Shown here in pieces: positions 5,399 through 12,135 of a stretch of 24,000 nt of DNA; the stretch's first letter is position 1, and the number at the start of each line of letters is the position of its first letter. Made by a program: the position numbers and the translations under genes. Under the pieces are notes generated by a model. It did not search any database, was not told where the DNA came from, and saw nothing but the letters and a program-made list of their open reading frames with translations. The DNA is from Vibrio pectenicida. GTDB lineage: Bacteria > Pseudomonadota > Gammaproteobacteria > Enterobacterales > Vibrionaceae. The stretch lies in NCBI RefSeq assembly GCF_003937805.1, contig NZ_RSFA01000009.1, one strand, 5' to 3'.

Positions 5399-6400
5399 CT
5401 ACTCAATAGAATTTTCATCTTTAAGGCTCCATTTGTGGTAGATTTCCCTGATCTCATCCTCTAGGCCTAAAAAAATCTCTACTAAATCTGGATCAAAGTG
5501 TGAACCAGAATTATTTTTAATTTCAATCAGCGCTTCTTCTATTGACCAAGCTTTTTTGTAAGGTCGCTCCATAGTCAGAGCATCAAACACATCGCAAATC
5601 GCTACAATCCTTGCACCTTGTGGTATCTGTTGACCCACTAAACCTTCAGGATATCCGGTACCATCCCAACGTTCATGATGCGATTTTGCGACGTCTGCGC
5701 CTAATTGGAATACAGGGTTAGAAGACATAGATAATATTTCGTGTCCAATCTCTGAATGTTTCTTCATAACCACCCATTCATCATCATCCAACCCTCTTGG
5801 GGCTTTTAGAATCGCATCAGGTATGCCGATTTTACCAGTGTCATGTAATGGTGCGGCTAGCTCCAACCGGTTATAATTTTCATAATCCCAACCCACAGCT
5901 TTAGCTAATAATTTACAATACTCCGCCATACGCCAAATATGGCTGCCAGTATCGGTATCGTTATAGTGACCAGCGACACCCAGCATTCGAATTGCTGATA
6001 GCGCCAAGGAATCGACTTCAGCCAACCGTGTCAGTGAGAGGTGAGTCGCCACACGTCGAAGTACAATAGCTGGAGAGAATGGCTTCGTAATATAATCGAC
6101 GGCTCCTAGGTCAAAACCCATTGACTGATCGTCGGTATCATCCTTGGCAGAAATAAAAATAACAGGAATATGAGAGGTCTCAGGGTTACGCTTTAGCCTG
6201 CGGCAGACTTCAAAGCCATCCATATCTGGCATCATGATATCGAGTAAAATAATATTAGGTTGAGGAGATGTACTGGCCAGCTTTAACGCTTTCTCACCAT
6301 TTGTTGCAGCTCTGACCGAGTAATTTCCTTTCTCCAGTACACTTTTTAGAATACGGATGTTATCCGGCACATCGTCAACAACTAAGATAGTTTTGTCCAT
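5399..6400 (-). CDS. Response regulator with HD-GYP output domain (RpfG-type c-di-GMP phosphodiesterase)
   Basis: REC domain: ILVVDDVPDN, phospho-acceptor context LLDIMMPDMDG, ITKPF. HD-GYP domain: LHDTGKIGIPD, HHERWDGTGYPEGL. The start lies 14 nt after the kinase stop. Confidence 0.93.
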   Translation of the reverse strand: MDKTILVVDDVPDNIRILKSVLEKGNYSVRAATNGEKALKLASTSPQPNIILLDIMMPDMDGFEVCRRLKRNPETSHIPVIFISAKDDTDDQSMGFDLGAVDYITKPFSPAIVLRRVATHLSLTRLAEVDSLALSAIRMLGVAGHYNDTDTGSHIWRMAEYCKLLAKAVGWDYENYNRLELAAPLHDTGKIGIPDAILKAPRGLDDDEWVVMKKHSEIGHEILSMSSNPVFQLGADVAKSHHERWDGTGYPEGLVGQQIPQGARIVAICDVFDALTMERPYKKAWSIEEALIEIKNNSGSHFDPDLVEIFLGLEDEIREIYHKWSLKDENSIE

Positions 6401-6414
6401 ACTTATCTCTTACT

Positions 6415-9159
6415 TTATCCTTGTAGGCTGGATAACATTGTATCCAAGCATTCTAGCGCTTCATCACTGTCATATATTTCAACAGCGTCATTCAAACGGT
6501 CAATTTGATCAGCTTTTACATGTCCTTGTATCATTGCGATTAGATTAGCTATGCTATCCTCTTCAAATTCCCCCAATTCAAGTTGCTCCCTAATCTCTGC
6601 ACTAAGAGCTATCACAACTTTACAGTCAAATTCCTGAGCTTGTACAAGCGACACTTCTGGCTGAAGACCGATTAAAGCAATCGACTCTAGTACTTGCTGT
6701 AATGCCGATGAGAGTTCGTTCCATGATTCAGAAATATCTTGGTCCTGTAACTTAAAAGCTTGCTCAAAAGTAAAGGCAACTTGAGATAAACGATGCGCGC
6801 CTAAAGAGGCAGAAGCTCCCTTCAAGGTATGGGCTGTAATTTCACCTTGTGAATAGTCTTTATCTGCCCATGAGGTTTTCAAATCGCTGAATGTACTTTG
6901 GTTATTTTTCGAAAAGCTATTGAGAAGTTTGGTGAACAGTATTCTATCATCATTGACTCTGGAGAGCCCTTCTTCAACATCAATACCAGGTAACTCCGGA
7001 AATGCCACATTATCTGCAACGTCATCACTTTGCTGTGGAGATGCAAACTCAAAATTGTCATCTTTGAATTTCGGATCGATCCACTTAAGTAACTTACTGT
7101 AAAGCTCACTGGTATCTATCGGTTTAGCGATATGGTCATTCATACCTGCTTCAGCGCATCGCTCTCGATCCTGTTGCATCGCATTAGCCGTCATAGCAAT
7201 GATAGGAAGCTCTCTTTGAGTGGGTTGTTCCCGAAGTACTCTTGCAGCCTCCAAACCATCCATCACTGGCATTTGTAAATCCATTAAGATGATGGCAAAC
7301 TTCCCATCAAGTGCCTTATCTACCCCTTCTTTTCCGTTGTTGGCTACTTCAACATTAAGGCCAACACTTTCAAGGAGCTCTATAGCGATAATTTGGTTAA
7401 CTTCATTATCCTCCACCAAAAGTACTGGTGCCCCACGAACTGTAGCAAAACTATCGTATAAGGCTTCACTCTCATTATTCTGACTTGAACTGTCAGAAAC
7501 CACAGCCTTACCCATAACCTCCATAACAGTATCCAGCAGCGCTGAAGCACTAACAGGTTTCACCAAGAAACCATCAATTTTTGCTTCAGACGCTTGGAGA
7601 ACGACTTCTTCTCTTCCATATGCGGTCATTAAAATAATTTTCGGGGGGCAATCAAGTGTCTTAATAATTTCAGATGCCTTAATACCATTCATTTCTGGCA
7701 TTTGCCAGTCCATTAAAACAAGCTCATAAGGACTGTCCTCAGCCATTGCTTTCTTAACCATATCAATGGCTTCAAATCCATTCACTGCGGTTGATATTTC
7801 AAGAGAGTAGGAATTAAGGAGTTCTTGGTTAATATCGCGGGCGCTTTTATTGTCATCAACGACGAGCGCTTTCATACCTTTGAGCTTTTTCCAATTGTAG
7901 ACACGCTCTTGCTGGTTCTCGATTTCTTTATCAAGAACACCAAACTCAGCGGTAAAGATAAAGCTACTCCCTTCTTGATAAACACTTTCTACCCAGATAT
8001 CACCATTCATCAGGTGCACCAAGTTCTGACAAATACTTAGGCCTAAACCAGTACCTCCATATTTACGAGTAGTTGAAGTATCGGCCTGGCTAAACGCACT
8101 AAATAGCTTTTGTATCTGTTCTGGCTTTAAACCTATACCTGTATCTTTGATCTCAAACTTTAATTTAACCCATTCGTTTAACTGCTCACAATTTGTGACT
8201 TTAACAATGATATCTCCTTGCTCAGTAAACTTGATTGCGTTATTGCAAAGGTTAGTGAGTATTTGACCAAGACGTAAAGGATCCCCAACCAACGAGTTGG
8301 GCAACTCTGGAGGAGTCGAGAAAATGACTTCCAATCCCTTTTCTTGTGCTTTTAGGGTAATTATTGTACATAAATCATCAAATACCTTATCAAGTTGAAA
8401 CGGTATTGACTCCATTTCCATTTTACCCGCTTCAATTTTAGAGATATCAAGAATGTCATTAATAATGCCCAACAATGCACGACCTGCTGAGTTTATTTTG
8501 CTAATGTAATCATGCTGCTTTGACGTCAATTGAGTCTTTAAAACAAGTTCACTCAGACCAATAACCGCATTCATCGGGGTACGTATTTCATGGCTCATAT
8601 TGGCCAAGAAATCACCTTTTGCCACATCTGCTTCTTTGGTTTTTTCTAAAGATATCTCTAATTCACGCATCAATTCTTGCTGCGAGAGCTGATTAAGCTT
8701 ATTACGTTGAATATCAACGTGTTCTTTAGGATAAAAGTTAGGATTGGGAAAACGTTTAAATGCCGTCAGCTTGTGTGAATGGTTACTCGCCGTCTCGACC
8801 GTAAAATAATCAAAAATGTAATCGTAATTCATTGACGTAACAGAACCGACTGCACTGTTAAGCTCAAGTTCAATTCCCCAGAGGTCAGCATTGCGAGAAA
8901 AAAAAAGTGCAACATTAAAACTGTCACAAGTGGATAAAAAGTTGTGACAAACTTCCGAAACAGCAGTCGCCAATCGCACTGAATTTACCCTAGAAAACTG
9001 ACAGTCTAGCGCAAGCCTTTTTACCTTATTTCTAAAATCAACAATAGATGGGCTATCTTCAATGCTGTATTCAGCAAGCTTAATGCTGCCTTCCTTAGAC
9101 GCTTGCTCCATTTCTTTTATGACGGTTTCGAGATTCATAGTCCATGTCCGAGTTCTCAA
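6415..9159 (-). CDS. Soluble hybrid sensor histidine kinase: RsbT-like degenerate N-domain, coiled coil, HisKA, HATPase_c, REC, REC, Hpt
   Basis: H-box SHEIRTPMNAVIG. N, G1 and G2 boxes NLCNNAIKFT, DTGIGL, GGTGLGLSI. REC1: VVDDN..LMDWQMPEMNG..VKP. REC2: LVEDNEVN..LMDLQMPVMDG..AKP. Hpt: HTLKGASASLG. No transmembrane segment is evident. TTG 9159 overlaps the rsbX stop (TTGA); the first ATG is at 9138 (MNLETV). Confidence 0.92.
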   Translation of the reverse strand: MRTRTWTMNLETVIKEMEQASKEGSIKLAEYSIEDSPSIVDFRNKVKRLALDCQFSRVNSVRLATAVSEVCHNFLSTCDSFNVALFFSRNADLWGIELELNSAVGSVTSMNYDYIFDYFTVETASNHSHKLTAFKRFPNPNFYPKEHVDIQRNKLNQLSQQELMRELEISLEKTKEADVAKGDFLANMSHEIRTPMNAVIGLSELVLKTQLTSKQHDYISKINSAGRALLGIINDILDISKIEAGKMEMESIPFQLDKVFDDLCTIITLKAQEKGLEVIFSTPPELPNSLVGDPLRLGQILTNLCNNAIKFTEQGDIIVKVTNCEQLNEWVKLKFEIKDTGIGLKPEQIQKLFSAFSQADTSTTRKYGGTGLGLSICQNLVHLMNGDIWVESVYQEGSSFIFTAEFGVLDKEIENQQERVYNWKKLKGMKALVVDDNKSARDINQELLNSYSLEISTAVNGFEAIDMVKKAMAEDSPYELVLMDWQMPEMNGIKASEIIKTLDCPPKIILMTAYGREEVVLQASEAKIDGFLVKPVSASALLDTVMEVMGKAVVSDSSSQNNESEALYDSFATVRGAPVLLVEDNEVNQIIAIELLESVGLNVEVANNGKEGVDKALDGKFAIILMDLQMPVMDGLEAARVLREQPTQRELPIIAMTANAMQQDRERCAEAGMNDHIAKPIDTSELYSKLLKWIDPKFKDDNFEFASPQQSDDVADNVAFPELPGIDVEEGLSRVNDDRILFTKLLNSFSKNNQSTFSDLKTSWADKDYSQGEITAHTLKGASASLGAHRLSQVAFTFEQAFKLQDQDISESWNELSSALQQVLESIALIGLQPEVSLVQAQEFDCKVVIALSAEIREQLELGEFEEDSIANLIAMIQGHVKADQIDRLNDAVEIYDSDEALECLDTMLSSLQG

Positions 9160-9734
9160 TTAACTCGGATGACTAGGCAAGTTGCATCATCTGATGCTTT
9201 TGCAAATTTCCGAGTAATATTTTGGGCGATAGTTTCAGCATTATCAGTATAGATGCTCGGGTAATCTTTTGGATCAAAATTACTCATGATTCCATCAGAA
9301 TAAAGGATCAATATTTCTCCAGGTACAAGTTGAACTGTATTTTTGACTGGTGTCCGTATTTGATAACCAAGTACACCTTGCTGGCAGATAAACCTTTGAA
9401 CTTCCTTACCAACTTTGCACATGAATATATTGCCAATACCCACGTAATCAAAACGCAATGAATTTATATCTAAATTAGCAATAATGGCAACGCCACCATT
9501 CGTGCTGCGCAAATTGTTGTGTAATTGTTCCATTAGCACGGGCAGATCTGTCTGGTACGATTGTTTCAAAAAGCTTCTTGTTGTACTGGCAATACTATGA
9601 GCACTTTTCCCATGACCAGCACCATCGAACAAGCTAATAAAATAGTCATTTCCATTCTGCTGATAAAAAGCATCATCCCCATTGACTTCTTCAAGTGGTT
9701 TTTCACCTATCGCTATCTCAATTTTTTCAGCCAT
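9156..9734 (-). CDS. rsbX: RsbX-like PP2C/SpoIIE-family serine phosphatase
   Basis: About 192 aa, similar in length and motif order to B. subtilis RsbX: GDDAF, FDGAGHGKSA, ILYSDGI, DDATCLVI. ATG 9734 overlaps the rsbT stop (TAATG) with AGGAAA upstream. An alternative in-frame ATG is at 9746. Confidence 0.85.
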   Translation of the reverse strand: MAEKIEIAIGEKPLEEVNGDDAFYQQNGNDYFISLFDGAGHGKSAHSIASTTRSFLKQSYQTDLPVLMEQLHNNLRSTNGGVAIIANLDINSLRFDYVGIGNIFMCKVGKEVQRFICQQGVLGYQIRTPVKNTVQLVPGEILILYSDGIMSNFDPKDYPSIYTDNAETIAQNITRKFAKASDDATCLVIRVN

Positions 9735-10135
9735 TATCTGCGCCATTTCCTTACCGTCACTTCAGTGCCAACACCAATTTCTGTTTCTATTTGCAGTGAA
9801 TCCATTAATCTCTGAGTGCCCGGTAAGCCAACCCCCATAGTACCGTGTGTACTGTAATTATCACTCAACGCTTTTTGCACATCATGTATACCGCCACCAC
9901 TATCTTTGGCAACGATTTCAACTCCAGTTCTGGTCTCATCTTCTAGATATTTTAAATACAACACTCCATGACCAGCATGATTAAGAATATTACGTGTCAG
10001 CTCACTAACTGCTATTGAAATCATGTATTGATCGACTGTCGAAAACCCAAGTTTTAGAGCAAACTTTTTCGCGTCTAAGCTAGCGTATCCAACGTCAGAG
10101 TCAGTCGCTATGTCTATTTTAATAATATTATCCAC
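9734..10135 (-). CDS. rsbT: RsbT-like stressosome serine kinase (anti-sigma-factor-type HATPase_c_2)
   Basis: 133 aa, the same length as B. subtilis RsbT and collinear with it: LGFSTVDQ, N-box IAVSELTRNIL, G1 DSGGGI, G2 GVGLPG, C-terminal VRKWRR. The GTG start has GGAGG 11 nt upstream. Confidence 0.9.
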   Translation of the reverse strand: MDNIIKIDIATDSDVGYASLDAKKFALKLGFSTVDQYMISIAVSELTRNILNHAGHGVLYLKYLEDETRTGVEIVAKDSGGGIHDVQKALSDNYSTHGTMGVGLPGTQRLMDSLQIETEIGVGTEVTVRKWRR

Positions 10136-10193: not shown

Positions 10194-10571
10194 TTATTTC
10201 TGATAATTGAGTAGGTAATCTAAAGCCTCCTCCATATTCCTTTTAGTCTTTAGATTGCTGGTATCCATATTGGAATCTATCATCGAAGCAATAATACCAG
10301 GACTTAAGCCAGTTACTGCGGTATGAGAGCCCATAACTTGAATCATATTGGCCGATTTGGTGAAAACATCCCACAGAGAGCTATCAACAATATCTACCCC
10401 AGAAAAATCAATAATCACACCAGCCACATGACGAGAACCTAGTGTATCCAAAATAACTTCTTGAACTCTTTTAGCATCCTCAATAGACAATTCATCTTGT
10501 ATAGGGACAATCAAGCAACGACTCATGTTATGAGTCACCACTTTGATCATGTTTTCTGCGGTGCTACTCAT
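10194..10571 (-). CDS. rsbS: RsbS-like single-domain STAS scaffold protein
   Basis: STAS fold signature with the phosphorylatable Ser context GVDIVDSS (cf. B. subtilis RsbS VDMIDSF) and TGLSPGIIASM. ATG 10571 has AGGA 8 nt upstream and overlaps the rsbR stop (ATGAGTAG). The ORF track extends to 10595. Confidence 0.87.
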   Translation of the reverse strand: MSSTAENMIKVVTHNMSRCLIVPIQDELSIEDAKRVQEVILDTLGSRHVAGVIIDFSGVDIVDSSLWDVFTKSANMIQVMGSHTAVTGLSPGIIASMIDSNMDTSNLKTKRNMEEALDYLLNYQK

Positions 10572-12135
10572 GCCATGATTCCTGATGTTCATCACTTTGG
10601 ATCAGTGTATAACCGGCAATTTTGAACGAGTTGTTAACTCCCTCTTTTAGGGTAGACTGAGTGACAACATCATTTAACTCAATGCCAAGATTAACTATCG
10701 CTTGAGCAACCACGGGAGAAATACCTGTCACTATACAAACACATCCCATAAGCCGCGTTGCTTTAGCAACCTTCAAAAGGTGATTTGCTACAGCACTGTC
10801 TACTGTAGGGACACCTTGTATATCTATCACTATCACCCGCGCTTCATAGTCGATAACTTTTTGTAATACGGCTTCCATAATCATCTGGATCCGGTTTGAA
10901 TCAATTAAGCCAATCACTGGTAACATCAATACTTTATCCCATAGCTGCATCACTGGAGTCGACATCTCCATTATCATCGATGCCTGCTTAGCTCGTTCTT
11001 CAGACATTTTTTTTCTATCAGTAATATCTGAAGCCACTTTGAGTACTTTGTATGGCTCACCTTTGAGATCTAACACTGGATTATAAGTTGCTTGAATAAA
11101 GACCTCGCGGCCATTTTTGGCAATACGTTTAAATTCTCCTGAAATAAACTGGCCTGCGCCGAGTTCACGCCAAAATTCTCTGTATTGCTCTGTTTCACTG
11201 TATTCTCGCTCACAAAATAGCCTATGGTGCTTACCTTGAATTTCTGCAAGGTTGTATCCCATAAGATCCAAAAAGTTTTGGTTGGCGGAAATAATGGTCC
11301 CGTCGAGATTAAATTCTATTGTGCCAAGCGATTTATCAATAGCATCAGCTTTAGCCTGCGCTTCATTACTAACCGTTTTATATTCTGTGATGTCTGAGGC
11401 AACCTTCAGTACTTTAACTAACTTGCCCTGCTCGTTGAATACAGGATTGTACGTTGCTTGAATAAATACTGTTTCTCCATCTTTGGTAACACGAATATAT
11501 TCACCGGAACTAAATTCACCTTTGCCAAGGCTATCCCAGAATTGGCTGTACTCCACACTCTGTCGGTATTGATCTTCACAAAAAATCCTATGATGCTTTC
11601 CTTTGATTTCATCAAGAGAATAATGCATTAAATCGAGAAAATTTTGATTGGCCGTGATAATGGTACCGTCTAAATTAAATTCAATGGTAGCTAATGATTT
11701 GTTTATAGCTTCAGTATGAGCTTTTGCCTTTAGACTGATAAGTTTGTTCTCAGTAATATCTGTCGCTACCTTGATTACTCGAATGGGCTTACCATTGCCA
11801 TCAAATACAGGGTTGTAAGTCGCTTGAAGGTAAATTTCATTACCACTTTTGGTCACTCGTTTGTACTCACCAGAATCAAATTCACCAGCACCTAAATTAT
11901 TCCAAAAATCTTTATAAGCACGACTTCGAGCATAGGTTGGTTGAACAAAAATCCTATGATGCTTTCCTTTGATTTCATCAAGCGTGTAACCAACAACATT
12001 TAGGAAGTTCTGATTCGCGTTAAAGATGGTCCCATCGAGCTCAAATTCTATTACTCCCTGAGACCTGTGAATTGCGTTGTACACGCTCTCGTATAATGCT
12101 GACTCATTATCAAAACCTTTGTTTGTTTTCTTCAT
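10564..12135 (-). CDS. rsbR: RsbR-like stressosome sensor: three tandem PAS domains plus a C-terminal STAS domain
   Basis: AAGGAG lies 5 nt upstream of ATG 12135 (MKKTNKG); the track's upstream extension to 12198 is probably non-coding. Three 122-aa units each carry IEF.LDGTI..AN.NFL...GY.L.EI.GKHHR.F...Y and ATYNPV....G......KVA.DIT. The C-terminal STAS resembles the RsbR C-terminus: VIDIQGVPTVDSAVANHLL, IVTGISPVVAQAIVNLGIEL. Confidence 0.88.
   Translation of the reverse strand: MKKTNKGFDNESALYESVYNAIHRSQGVIEFELDGTIFNANQNFLNVVGYTLDEIKGKHHRIFVQPTYARSRAYKDFWNNLGAGEFDSGEYKRVTKSGNEIYLQATYNPVFDGNGKPIRVIKVATDITENKLISLKAKAHTEAINKSLATIEFNLDGTIITANQNFLDLMHYSLDEIKGKHHRIFCEDQYRQSVEYSQFWDSLGKGEFSSGEYIRVTKDGETVFIQATYNPVFNEQGKLVKVLKVASDITEYKTVSNEAQAKADAIDKSLGTIEFNLDGTIISANQNFLDLMGYNLAEIQGKHHRLFCEREYSETEQYREFWRELGAGQFISGEFKRIAKNGREVFIQATYNPVLDLKGEPYKVLKVASDITDRKKMSEERAKQASMIMEMSTPVMQLWDKVLMLPVIGLIDSNRIQMIMEAVLQKVIDYEARVIVIDIQGVPTVDSAVANHLLKVAKATRLMGCVCIVTGISPVVAQAIVNLGIELNDVVTQSTLKEGVNNSFKIAGYTLIQSDEHQESWHE
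10999..12099 (-). repeat. Intragenic tandem triplication, 366-nt period (the three PAS modules of rsbR)
   Basis: The protein repeat period is exactly 122 aa. The 36-nt string aaaaatcctatgatgctttcctttgatttcatcaag is identical at 11581-11616 and 11947-11982 (offset 366). The third copy at 11215-11250 matches 28/36. Confidence 0.85.

Follow-up and report, generated by a model that had tools for sequence, protein, structure and literature searches.

How a stressosome passes on its signal when RsbU, RsbV, RsbW and SigB are missing is a question stated to be open in the literature. VvD1, the V. vulnificus hybrid kinase encoded behind rsbRSTX, was found to have no RsbU_N domain (Heinz et al. 2022; PMC9237108). 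The window analysed here, a stretch of 24,000 nucleotides from Vibrio pectenicida (contig NZ_RSFA01000009.1), raises the same question. It has the Vibrio-type minimal stressosome layout, in which a hybrid kinase and a c-di-GMP response regulator come directly after rsbR-rsbS-rsbT-rsbX, without a sigma factor (Table 1). The loci of V. hepatarius, V. tetraodonis and a Vibrio sp. showed an identical layout. The initial annotation of the window had placed a degenerate RsbT-like domain, probably unable to bind ATP, at the head of the kinase in the position of RsbU-N. Profile-profile comparison, the predicted fold, motif counts and gene context all supported this proposal.

Table 1. Features of the stressosome locus, in positions of the window
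Feature	Position	Strand	Remarks	Basis
Response regulator with HD-GYP domain	5399..6400	(-)	Presumed end of the phosphorelay (c-di-GMP hydrolysis)	Pfam scan
Hybrid histidine kinase	6415..9138	(-)	907 aa; dead-RsbT domain, HisKA, HATPase_c, two receiver domains, Hpt	Pfam scan
Two linker helices of the kinase	8623..8733	(-)	Residues 136-172	Alignment, AF2 model, motif counts
Core of the lid-less RsbT-like (dead GHKL) domain	8734..9084	(-)	Kinase residues 19-135, numbered from ATG 9138	
N-terminal helix of the kinase	9085..9138	(-)	Residues 1-18	Family alignment and AF2 secondary structure
RsbX	9156..9746	(-)	Single-domain PP2C feedback phosphatase	Pfam scan
RsbT	9734..10135	(-)	Active Ser/Thr kinase; N-box, G1 and G2 intact	
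RsbS (STAS)	10194..10571	(-)	Phospho-acceptor loop D-I-V-D-S-S; predicted partner of the dead-RsbT domain	
Further listed part of the locus	10564..12135	(-)		Pfam scan

Kinase residues are counted here from the ATG at 9138, the start common to all database relatives of the kinase, so that positions 8740-9138 (-) of the window correspond to residues 1-133. An in-frame TTG at 9159 gives seven extra residues, and the residue numbers of the initial annotation follow this TTG. The core of the domain consists of beta1, alpha1 (with Arg36-Asn37-Lys38), alpha2 and four strands. Helix alpha2 holds Arg55, Ser61-Glu62 and a remnant N-box, and a short loop lies at the place expected for the ATP lid. The N-terminal helix is present in close Vibrio relatives only; other family members begin at the first strand. 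The linker helices carry conserved P-x-x-F-x-P and L-S-R-x-E-L-x-x-E-L motifs and continue directly into the HisKA/DHp helix, HisKA starting at residue 173 (180 in TTG numbering).

The relationship between the kinase N-terminus and RsbT was analyzed at several levels. When kinase residues 1-190 were compared by BLASTP with the RsbT of the window, encoded two genes upstream, residues 47-107 were aligned with RsbT residues 23-83 without gaps (16/61 identical, pairwise E of 3e-5). The best ungapped diagonal scored 59, against 25.7 +/- 3.7 for shuffled RsbT, and none of 2000 shuffles scored as high. The ungapped likeness described in the initial annotation is therefore real, although its register was two residues off: the offset is 24, not 22, and 5 of 57 residues are identical at the register quoted. 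By hhalign, the profile of the 59-member family of the dead domain was aligned with RsbT over 119 columns (probability 95.9%, E of 5e-9), spanning the whole of RsbT except for a gap of about 19 residues at the lid. The same profile retrieved genuine RsbT genes of other genomes with E-values of 1e-9 to 1e-13.

No significant match was obtained in Pfam, NCBIfam or PDB sequences, whether the query was the single domain or the family profile. The weak NCBIfam matches were solely to the RsbA anti-sigma factor (E of 0.006-0.11). The family profile retrieved no SpoIIAB or RsbW chain from the PDB, and neither this domain nor any of the 59 family members had a Pfam match, to HATPase_c_2 (PF13581) or otherwise, at E<=1. 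Judged by sequence, the dead domain defines an unannotated family that merits an entry in the domain databases. Literature searches found no description of a dead-RsbT domain.

The AF2 model of the kinase N-domain (pLDDT 88) is a mixed alpha/beta sandwich of the Bergerat type. In a Foldseek search against the PDB, the top 17 matches were all SpoIIAB, RsbW or UsfX with a probability of 1.0, followed by a sharp break. The relation to the HATPase_c_2 fold, on whose absence the initial annotation would have given up its proposal, was thus found both by hhalign and by Foldseek. It is almost certain that the N-domain of the kinase is a dead RsbT-type domain. A docking domain of the RsbU_N type was considered and rejected because of the alpha/beta sandwich fold and because the kinase N-domain did not match the RsbU_N model of Pfam. 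The ESM Atlas provided two leads, namely Bergerat-fold features and kinases with an N-terminal HATPase_c_2 domain, and both were then tested independently.

The loss of the G1 and G2 boxes claimed earlier was confirmed. The dead domain lacks the ATP lid, a stretch of about 19 residues from G1 to G2, and the G1 Asp is kept in 2 of the 59 family members. The N-box Glu is kept in 52 of 59. The initial annotation had also pointed to a preserved N-box context (AVSE...N). This is true of the present kinase, but the family shows no conservation of the Mg-ligand Asn, most often having Ser, Ile, Ala, Lys or Arg at that position, and even the nearest Vibrio relatives do not conserve it. The Asn is hence incidental, and its reading as a sign of residual nucleotide binding was rejected. 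With no lid and no conserved Mg-binding Asn, the domain should not bind ATP and is predicted to be a pseudokinase.

Other positions are strongly conserved. Arg36, which aligns with Arg20 of SpoIIAB, is found in 57 of 59 members, and the surface residues Arg36, Lys38, Arg55 and Glu62 are 86-98% conserved across phyla despite an overall identity of about 30%. Ser61 and Thr58 are nearly invariant. The RsbT of the window has Ser, not Arg, at position 19.

Carriers of the dead domain were found in Vibrio, Psychromonas, Nitrospinota, Fibrobacterales and Flavobacteriaceae. In the first 13 distinct loci retrieved for the family, rsbR-S-T-X is in every case followed directly by the gene whose product begins with the domain, and further carriers fetched in a phylum scan showed the same layout. 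The proteins headed by it are histidine kinases, PP2C phosphatases, GGDEF proteins, a cyclase and an HD-GYP protein. A locus search with a 14-sequence sub-alignment of the family gave 8 loci. In four modules (L004, L050, L052 and L053), RsbT is fused to RsbX and there is no free RsbT, while the output protein with the dead domain is retained. The same N-domain was also found in other Vibrio stressosome kinases, as the initial annotation had thought worth checking. Its version in the D1 kinases of V. brasiliensis and V. mimicus is homologous and more decayed (hhalign probability of 95.8% to the dead-domain family; RsbW-like AF2 fold). Direct hhalign comparison of the V. brasiliensis-type N-domain with RsbT showed no relation (0.2%), and the two are linked solely via the intermediate dead-domain family. 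It is very probable that the dead domain is an input domain that couples its protein to the stressosome.

Two kinds of partner had been suggested for the domain: RsbT itself, by heterodimerisation or docking, and the STAS sites for which it would compete with RsbT. Complex modelling supported the latter as a prediction. The N-domain with RsbS gave a median score of 0.65 against 0.27 for the best control, the score being the model's own confidence for monomers of a presumably dimeric kinase. Of 80 solved complexes, 58 attained the mark of 0.32, as did 2 of 110 mismatched pairs; this calibration holds only roughly because unpaired, self-supplied alignments were used. The modelled interface involves N-domain residues 36-37, 55, 57-58 and 61-62. 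These 7 residues all belong to the 17 most conserved positions, an enrichment not independent of the alignment used in the modelling. On the RsbS side it involves loop 68-73 with the phospho-acceptor Ser, upon which the model places the conserved Arg36/Arg55/Ser61/Glu62 face of the family.

It is worth noting that a pair akin to solved complexes (SpoIIAB-SpoIIAA and RsbW-RsbV) can score high because the predictor has memorised them, and that the RsbS result may thus only restate the likeness in fold. In SpoIIAB the lid is part of the STAS interface, and its loss from the dead domain is a point against RsbS as the partner. The chances of a STAS domain as the partner, as against RsbT, appear to be about even.

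Our favoured explanation, to which we assign a probability of roughly 0.5, is that a dead RsbT paralogue at the head of the kinase binds the STAS domain of RsbS and couples it to the phosphorelay. The N-domain, which lacks the ATP lid (G1 to G2) and a conserved Mg-binding Asn, would be a pseudokinase that retains the alpha1/alpha2 face by which RsbT, RsbW and SpoIIAB hold their STAS partners. It would most likely bind the STAS domain of RsbS directly, and possibly that of RsbR as well. The phosphorylation state of the STAS domains, set by RsbT and reset by RsbX, would then decide whether or not the histidine kinase is bound, be it to the stressosome or to RsbS. As to the direction of regulation and the output of the kinase, we infer that binding or release would be relayed via the conserved L-S-R-x-E-L linker helix to the DHp helix. 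The signal would there switch the phosphorelay (HK to receiver to Hpt to REC-HD-GYP) and alter c-di-GMP levels.

It is also conceivable, though rather doubtful, that the dead domain or the linker helix behind it is a functional analogue of RsbU-N that receives RsbT once the stressosome has set it free, the bound RsbT ordering the linker and activating the kinase dimer. Anti-sigma kinases of the RsbT-like fold dimerise, and this habit would allow a heterodimer of RsbT and its dead copy. The dead domain also occupies the position of RsbU-N, being N-terminal on varied outputs directly after rsbRST(X). In all three modelling runs with RsbT, its alpha1/alpha2 face came to lie against the conserved linker helix 150-167; the runs agreed to 94%, and the best of them scored 0.24. 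Activation by RsbT plus a linker has a precedent in RsbU, for which this mechanism is established (PMC12143880). The median of the RsbT runs, however, was 0.06, under the mark of 0.32, and gave no support to docking or heterodimerisation, although a low score is no evidence against binding. An interaction between VvRsbT and VvD1 was not found by Heinz et al. 2022 (PMC9237108), and the conserved surface of the dead domain is the STAS-binding face and no known dimer face. The modules with an RsbT-RsbX fusion and no free RsbT fit a reader of the phosphorylation state better than a messenger in the form of released RsbT.

Heinz et al. (PMC9237108) suggested that RsbT phosphorylates the N-terminal region of VvD1, and the dead domain could accordingly be a substrate or a transient docking site, with the nearly invariant Ser61 and Thr58 available in it. 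The counterpart of Ser61 in RsbT, however, is the invariant N-box Ser, so that structure explains the conservation of Ser61. The dead domain has a kinase fold and not a STAS fold, and no result of the analysis supported phosphorylation. Known substrates of RsbT are, to our knowledge, STAS domains, and this role of the dead domain is improbable. Equally improbable is an evolutionary relic that serves for dimerisation or as a scaffold only, without an Rsb partner and linked to the stressosome by co-expression only: the domain plainly arose by decay from Pseudomonas-type kinases with a motif-intact N-terminal RsbT-like domain, but its Arg36, Lys38, Arg55 and Glu62 surface has stayed conserved across phyla, and it has moved onto five kinds of output, always adjoining rsbRSTX.

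The reading of the domain as a dead RsbT paralogue that binds RsbS would have wider consequences. A conserved RsbT-derived pseudokinase domain heading the outputs would be a concrete physical link to the stressosome, and direct binding to RsbS, as the modelling suggests, would account for how outputs are reached by stressosomes that lack a sigma-factor cascade. It would also be a clear bacterial example of a pseudokinase put to new use as a docking module. More tentatively, stressosomes without RsbU-type outputs may not signal by released RsbT at all; dead copies of RsbT may instead compete for the STAS sites of RsbS and RsbR and read their phosphorylation, RsbT being purely the writer, RsbX the eraser and the pseudokinase the reader. 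If this were true, the loss of the SpoIIAB-Arg20-like Arg from the cognate RsbT and its retention in the reader domain would mark a division of labour between writer and reader.

Comparison with known systems places the domain as follows. It is homologous to RsbT (PF13581, HATPase_c_2) across the whole domain and shares with it the alpha/beta sandwich, the N-box Ser-Glu, the alpha1/alpha2 surface and the operon. It differs in having no G1, G2 or ATP lid, in the unconserved Mg-ligand Asn, in its fusion to the N-terminus of an output enzyme and in keeping the equivalent of SpoIIAB Arg20 that the cognate RsbT has lost. RsbU_N is a four-helix bundle that docks RsbT and occurs in RsbU, in MtG of M. 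thermoacetica and in some proteobacterial kinases. Like the dead domain, it is N-terminal, is followed by a helical linker and heads phosphatases, cyclases and kinases whose genes follow rsbRST. The folds, however, are unrelated (four-helix bundle versus GHKL sandwich), and the predicted partner of the dead domain is RsbS, not RsbT.

The best structural matches are SpoIIAB, RsbW and UsfX in their complexes with STAS antagonists (PDB 1TH8, 1TID, 6M36 and 8IH8), and the interface predicted with RsbS involves the corresponding face together with the phospho-acceptor loop of the STAS domain. These proteins, however, are active, free-standing kinases that also bind a sigma factor, and no sigma factor is present at this locus. 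VvD1 of V. vulnificus and VbD1 of V. brasiliensis, both hybrid kinases encoded behind rsbRSTX (Heinz 2022; Jia 2016), follow the same operon logic, but their systems have a globin-type RsbR and an extra PAS domain, and the D1 N-domain of V. brasiliensis and V. mimicus has decayed beyond detectable similarity to RsbT itself. In Pseudomonas-type cassettes, RsbR-RsbS-RsbT is followed by HATPase_c_2-PP2C and then by HATPase_c_2-HisKA-HATPase_c-REC. The N-terminal domain of that kinase is likewise of the RsbT type and has the T-R-(I/L)-A-T-x-x-S-E motif in common with the dead domain. There the N-box, G1 and G2 are retained and Pfam detects the domain, whereas the dead domain represents the lid-less, unannotated end of the series.

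The hybrid histidine kinase belongs to a set of six co-directional genes on the minus strand of the window, and its closest named relatives are the kinases of V. hepatarius, V. tetraodonis and V. pectenicida. The three PAS domains of the RsbR occupy the place where the studied Vibrio stressosomes have a haem globin. Two start codons of the kinase gene were considered, an in-frame TTG at 9159 overlapping the rsbX stop and an ATG at 9138, 18 nt downstream. The ATG is favoured by the relatives and by database records, and residues are counted from it here; the numbers of the initial annotation run 7 higher.

Features discussed, with locations in the window or in the comparison loci (L numbers)
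Feature	Location	Strand	Description
RsbR	window 10564-12135	minus	three PAS domains and a STAS domain
RsbS		minus	STAS protein
RsbT	window 9734-10135	minus	HATPase_c_2 kinase
RsbX		minus	single-domain PP2C phosphatase
Hybrid histidine kinase	window 6415-9138	minus	907 aa; HisKA, HATPase_c, two receiver domains, Hpt
Response regulator		minus	REC-HD-GYP
RsbT-RsbX fusion	L004:5955-7004		~335-350 aa
RsbT-RsbX fusion	L050:461-1501		~335-350 aa
RsbT-RsbX fusion	L052:458-1501		~335-350 aa
RsbT-RsbX fusion	L053:1674-2720		~335-350 aa
Three-RsbT-domain cassettes	L044, L055, L039, L038, L029		Pseudomonas and other Pseudomonadota
1590-aa protein	L001:89-4861		SBP_bac_3, PAS, SpoIIE, HATPase_c_2
Small STAS protein	L001:4867-5205		beside the 1590-aa protein

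The N-terminus of the kinase and the RsbT of the window share a 61-residue ungapped alignment with 16 identities (BLASTP, E of 3e-5 for the pair). The top ungapped diagonal scored 59; for shuffled RsbT the scores were 25.7 +/- 3.7 and rose no higher than 47, and none of 2000 shuffles attained 59. The motifs named in the initial annotation are the truly aligned ones. The register quoted there (n-22) gives 5 matches in 57 and had to be replaced: kinase residue n, in the TTG numbering, corresponds to RsbT residue n-24, the discrepancy being a numbering slip. An alignment of 59 members of the domain family matched an RsbT alignment with a probability of 95.9% and an E of 5e-9 over 119 columns (hhalign). 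The match spans RsbT end to end except for a gap of about 19 residues, which takes out G1, the lid helix and the first part of G2. In an independent test among 401 Pseudomonadota genomes, the family profile found genuine RsbT genes of 134-142 aa in an rsbR-rsbS-rsbT context (E 1e-9 to 1e-13), and in Vibrio its next-best matches were RsbT genes from stressosome loci of the globin type; among PDB sequences, it did not reach SpoIIAB or RsbW. RsbT, not the anti-sigma kinases, is therefore the nearer relative of the lid-less domain.

When 1.8 billion representatives were scanned in full with phmmer, 69 proteins came up at E<=1e-3, and in nearly all of them the domain lies at residues ~2-145. No family member matched a Pfam model, NCBIfam gave non-significant matches only, to the RsbA anti-sigma factor, and no PDB chain was found by sequence with either the single sequence or the family profile. 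The AlphaFold2 model built with the family alignment (pLDDT 88, pTM 0.78) has the predicted order of a strand, two long helices, four strands and then two linker helices. Its best 17 Foldseek matches in the PDB were SpoIIAB, RsbW and UsfX (probability 1.0, target TM 0.56-0.76), followed by an abrupt drop to unrelated folds at probabilities below 0.1. One metagenomic kinase of 552 aa (P0012) carries a tandem pair of lid-less domains ahead of HisKA. Strongly matching kinases are rare within Vibrio (5 of 251 species genomes sampled).

GHKL kinases bind Mg-ATP through the N-box Asn and the G1, lid and G2 residues. The N-box Ser and Glu are kept in 57 and 52 of the 59 family members, respectively, while the position of the Mg-ligand Asn is variable, most commonly Ser, Ile, Ala, Lys or Arg. 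The Asn to which the initial annotation had pointed is present in the window kinase, but its retention is incidental, since the closest relatives have Lys. The loss of G1 and G2, claimed at the same time, was borne out: the G1 Asp occurs in 2 of 59 members, and neither the lid nor the G2 glycines remain. Since the Mg-ATP-binding residues are missing, no ATP binding is expected, and we firmly conclude that the domain is a dead (pseudo)kinase.

The genomic context was uniform. The genes rsbR-rsbS-rsbT-rsbX lie immediately upstream of the domain-bearing gene in all 13 distinct loci first fetched, and in further carriers from the phylum scan the genes immediately upstream are again rsbS, rsbT and rsbX, in some cases with the last two fused. 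The carriers include Vibrio, Psychromonas, Nitrospinota, Fibrobacterales and Flavobacteriaceae, as well as several metagenomic contigs. Among 52 representatives, the outputs headed by the domain are HisKA (46), PP2C (3), GGDEF (2), class III cyclase (1) and HD-GYP (1), and additional short GGDEF proteins bear it. We firmly conclude that the lid-less domain is a stressosome coupling domain. At L001, where the output is dead-domain-PP2C-HATPase_c_2, the 1590-aa protein and the small STAS protein lie immediately upstream of the rsbRSTX module, an arrangement that looks like a second partner-switch layer.

Less and more degenerate forms were also found. Pseudomonas-type cassettes have the order RsbR, RsbS, RsbT, HATPase_c_2-PP2C and then a HATPase_c_2-HisKA-HATPase_c-REC kinase, whose N-domain is full-length, RsbT-like and Pfam-recognised, with N-box, G1 and G2 intact. 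This N-domain has the signature T-R-(I/L)-A-T-x-x-S-E in common with the window's family, which differs in having no lid. The three-RsbT-domain cassettes have catalytic motifs in all three RsbT-type domains of the operon. The D1 kinases, hybrid kinases of about 1050 aa with a PAS domain, occur in V. brasiliensis, V. orientalis, V. xuii and V. mimicus. Their N-domain is a further step in the decay series; its profile matched the lid-less family (95.8%, E 7e-9) and gave no match to RsbT (0.2%). Its AlphaFold2 model (pLDDT 92), from an alignment dominated by the lid-less family, matches only RsbW, UsfX and SpoIIAB. At the canonical D-S phospho-acceptor site, no Ser is present in the RsbS of L021-L024 (V. 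mimicus-/V. brasiliensis-type, globin-type); most other RsbS, including that of the window, retain this Ser.

Two partners were weighed. The lid-less domain may bind RsbS and read its phosphorylation state; alternatively, released RsbT may dock in an RsbU-like manner and act through the linker helix. Complex modelling with RsbS gave 0.69, 0.64 and 0.65 (best control 0.27), passing a mark of 0.32. In the tool's calibration, 58 of 80 solved complexes attained this mark, as did 2 of 110 mismatched pairs; these counts are only roughly valid for self-supplied alignments. The modelled interface joins N-domain residues 28-40, 50-65 and 107-108 to RsbS residues 35-39, 68-73 and 98-108, and the RsbS loop 68-73 (D-I-V-D-S-S) contains the conserved phospho-acceptor Ser. 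Arg36, Lys38, Arg55, Ala57, Thr58, Ser61 and Glu62 on alpha1/alpha2 are nearly invariant, as are core residues, and the interface holds 7 of the 17 most conserved positions (Mann-Whitney p 0.001), a measure not independent of the modelling alignment. The pass may only echo SpoIIAB-SpoIIAA-like complexes already familiar to the model. With RsbT, three runs gave 0.01, 0.06 and 0.24, all below the mark, and docking of RsbT found no support there; consistent with the RsbU-like mechanism, these runs repeatedly placed RsbT, at low confidence, on the conserved linker helix 150-167.

By two chained alignments, Arg36 falls at the position of SpoIIAB Arg20, a contact for SpoIIAA and sigma-F. The lid-less domain keeps this Arg in 57 of 59 members. 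Position 19 of RsbT is the equivalent one. It carries Ser, Ala, Thr, Val, Met or Leu in 18 distinct free-standing RsbT from lid-less or D1-output modules (for 13 of them the output was scored within the fetched stretch, L013 and L020-L023 make up the rest, and the window's RsbT is counted). It carries Arg in 28 further distinct RsbT-like ORFs shorter than 200 aa, which come from Pseudomonas-type cassettes or from cassettes without a scored output. Since both groups are clades, this correlation may stem from very few independent events.

In the operons with RsbT-RsbX fusions, free RsbT is absent and the output carries the dead domain; the fusion, with kinase motifs intact, sits directly between rsbS and that output. 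An RsbT tethered to its reset phosphatase would be odd as a released messenger and fits naturally as a writer and eraser of STAS phosphorylation. RsbT-type domains of Pseudomonas-type cassettes are fused also to a phosphatase that acts on STAS proteins, and this suggests that the RsbT-type domain serves as a STAS-targeting module. Taken as a mechanism for the lid-less domain, STAS reading has about even odds.

The VvD1 kinase of V. vulnificus is, by description, in the size class of these D1 kinases and likewise has a PAS domain, and a negative interaction result for VvRsbT-VvD1 has been published (PMC9237108), which is what the STAS-partner model expects. Modular placement on varied outputs has been described for RsbU_N (PMC12143880; PMC9237108), to which no protein in the window gave a match in the Pfam scan. 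The lid-less domain resembles RsbU_N in its modular use on different outputs and differs from it in fold, RsbU_N being an unrelated helical bundle.
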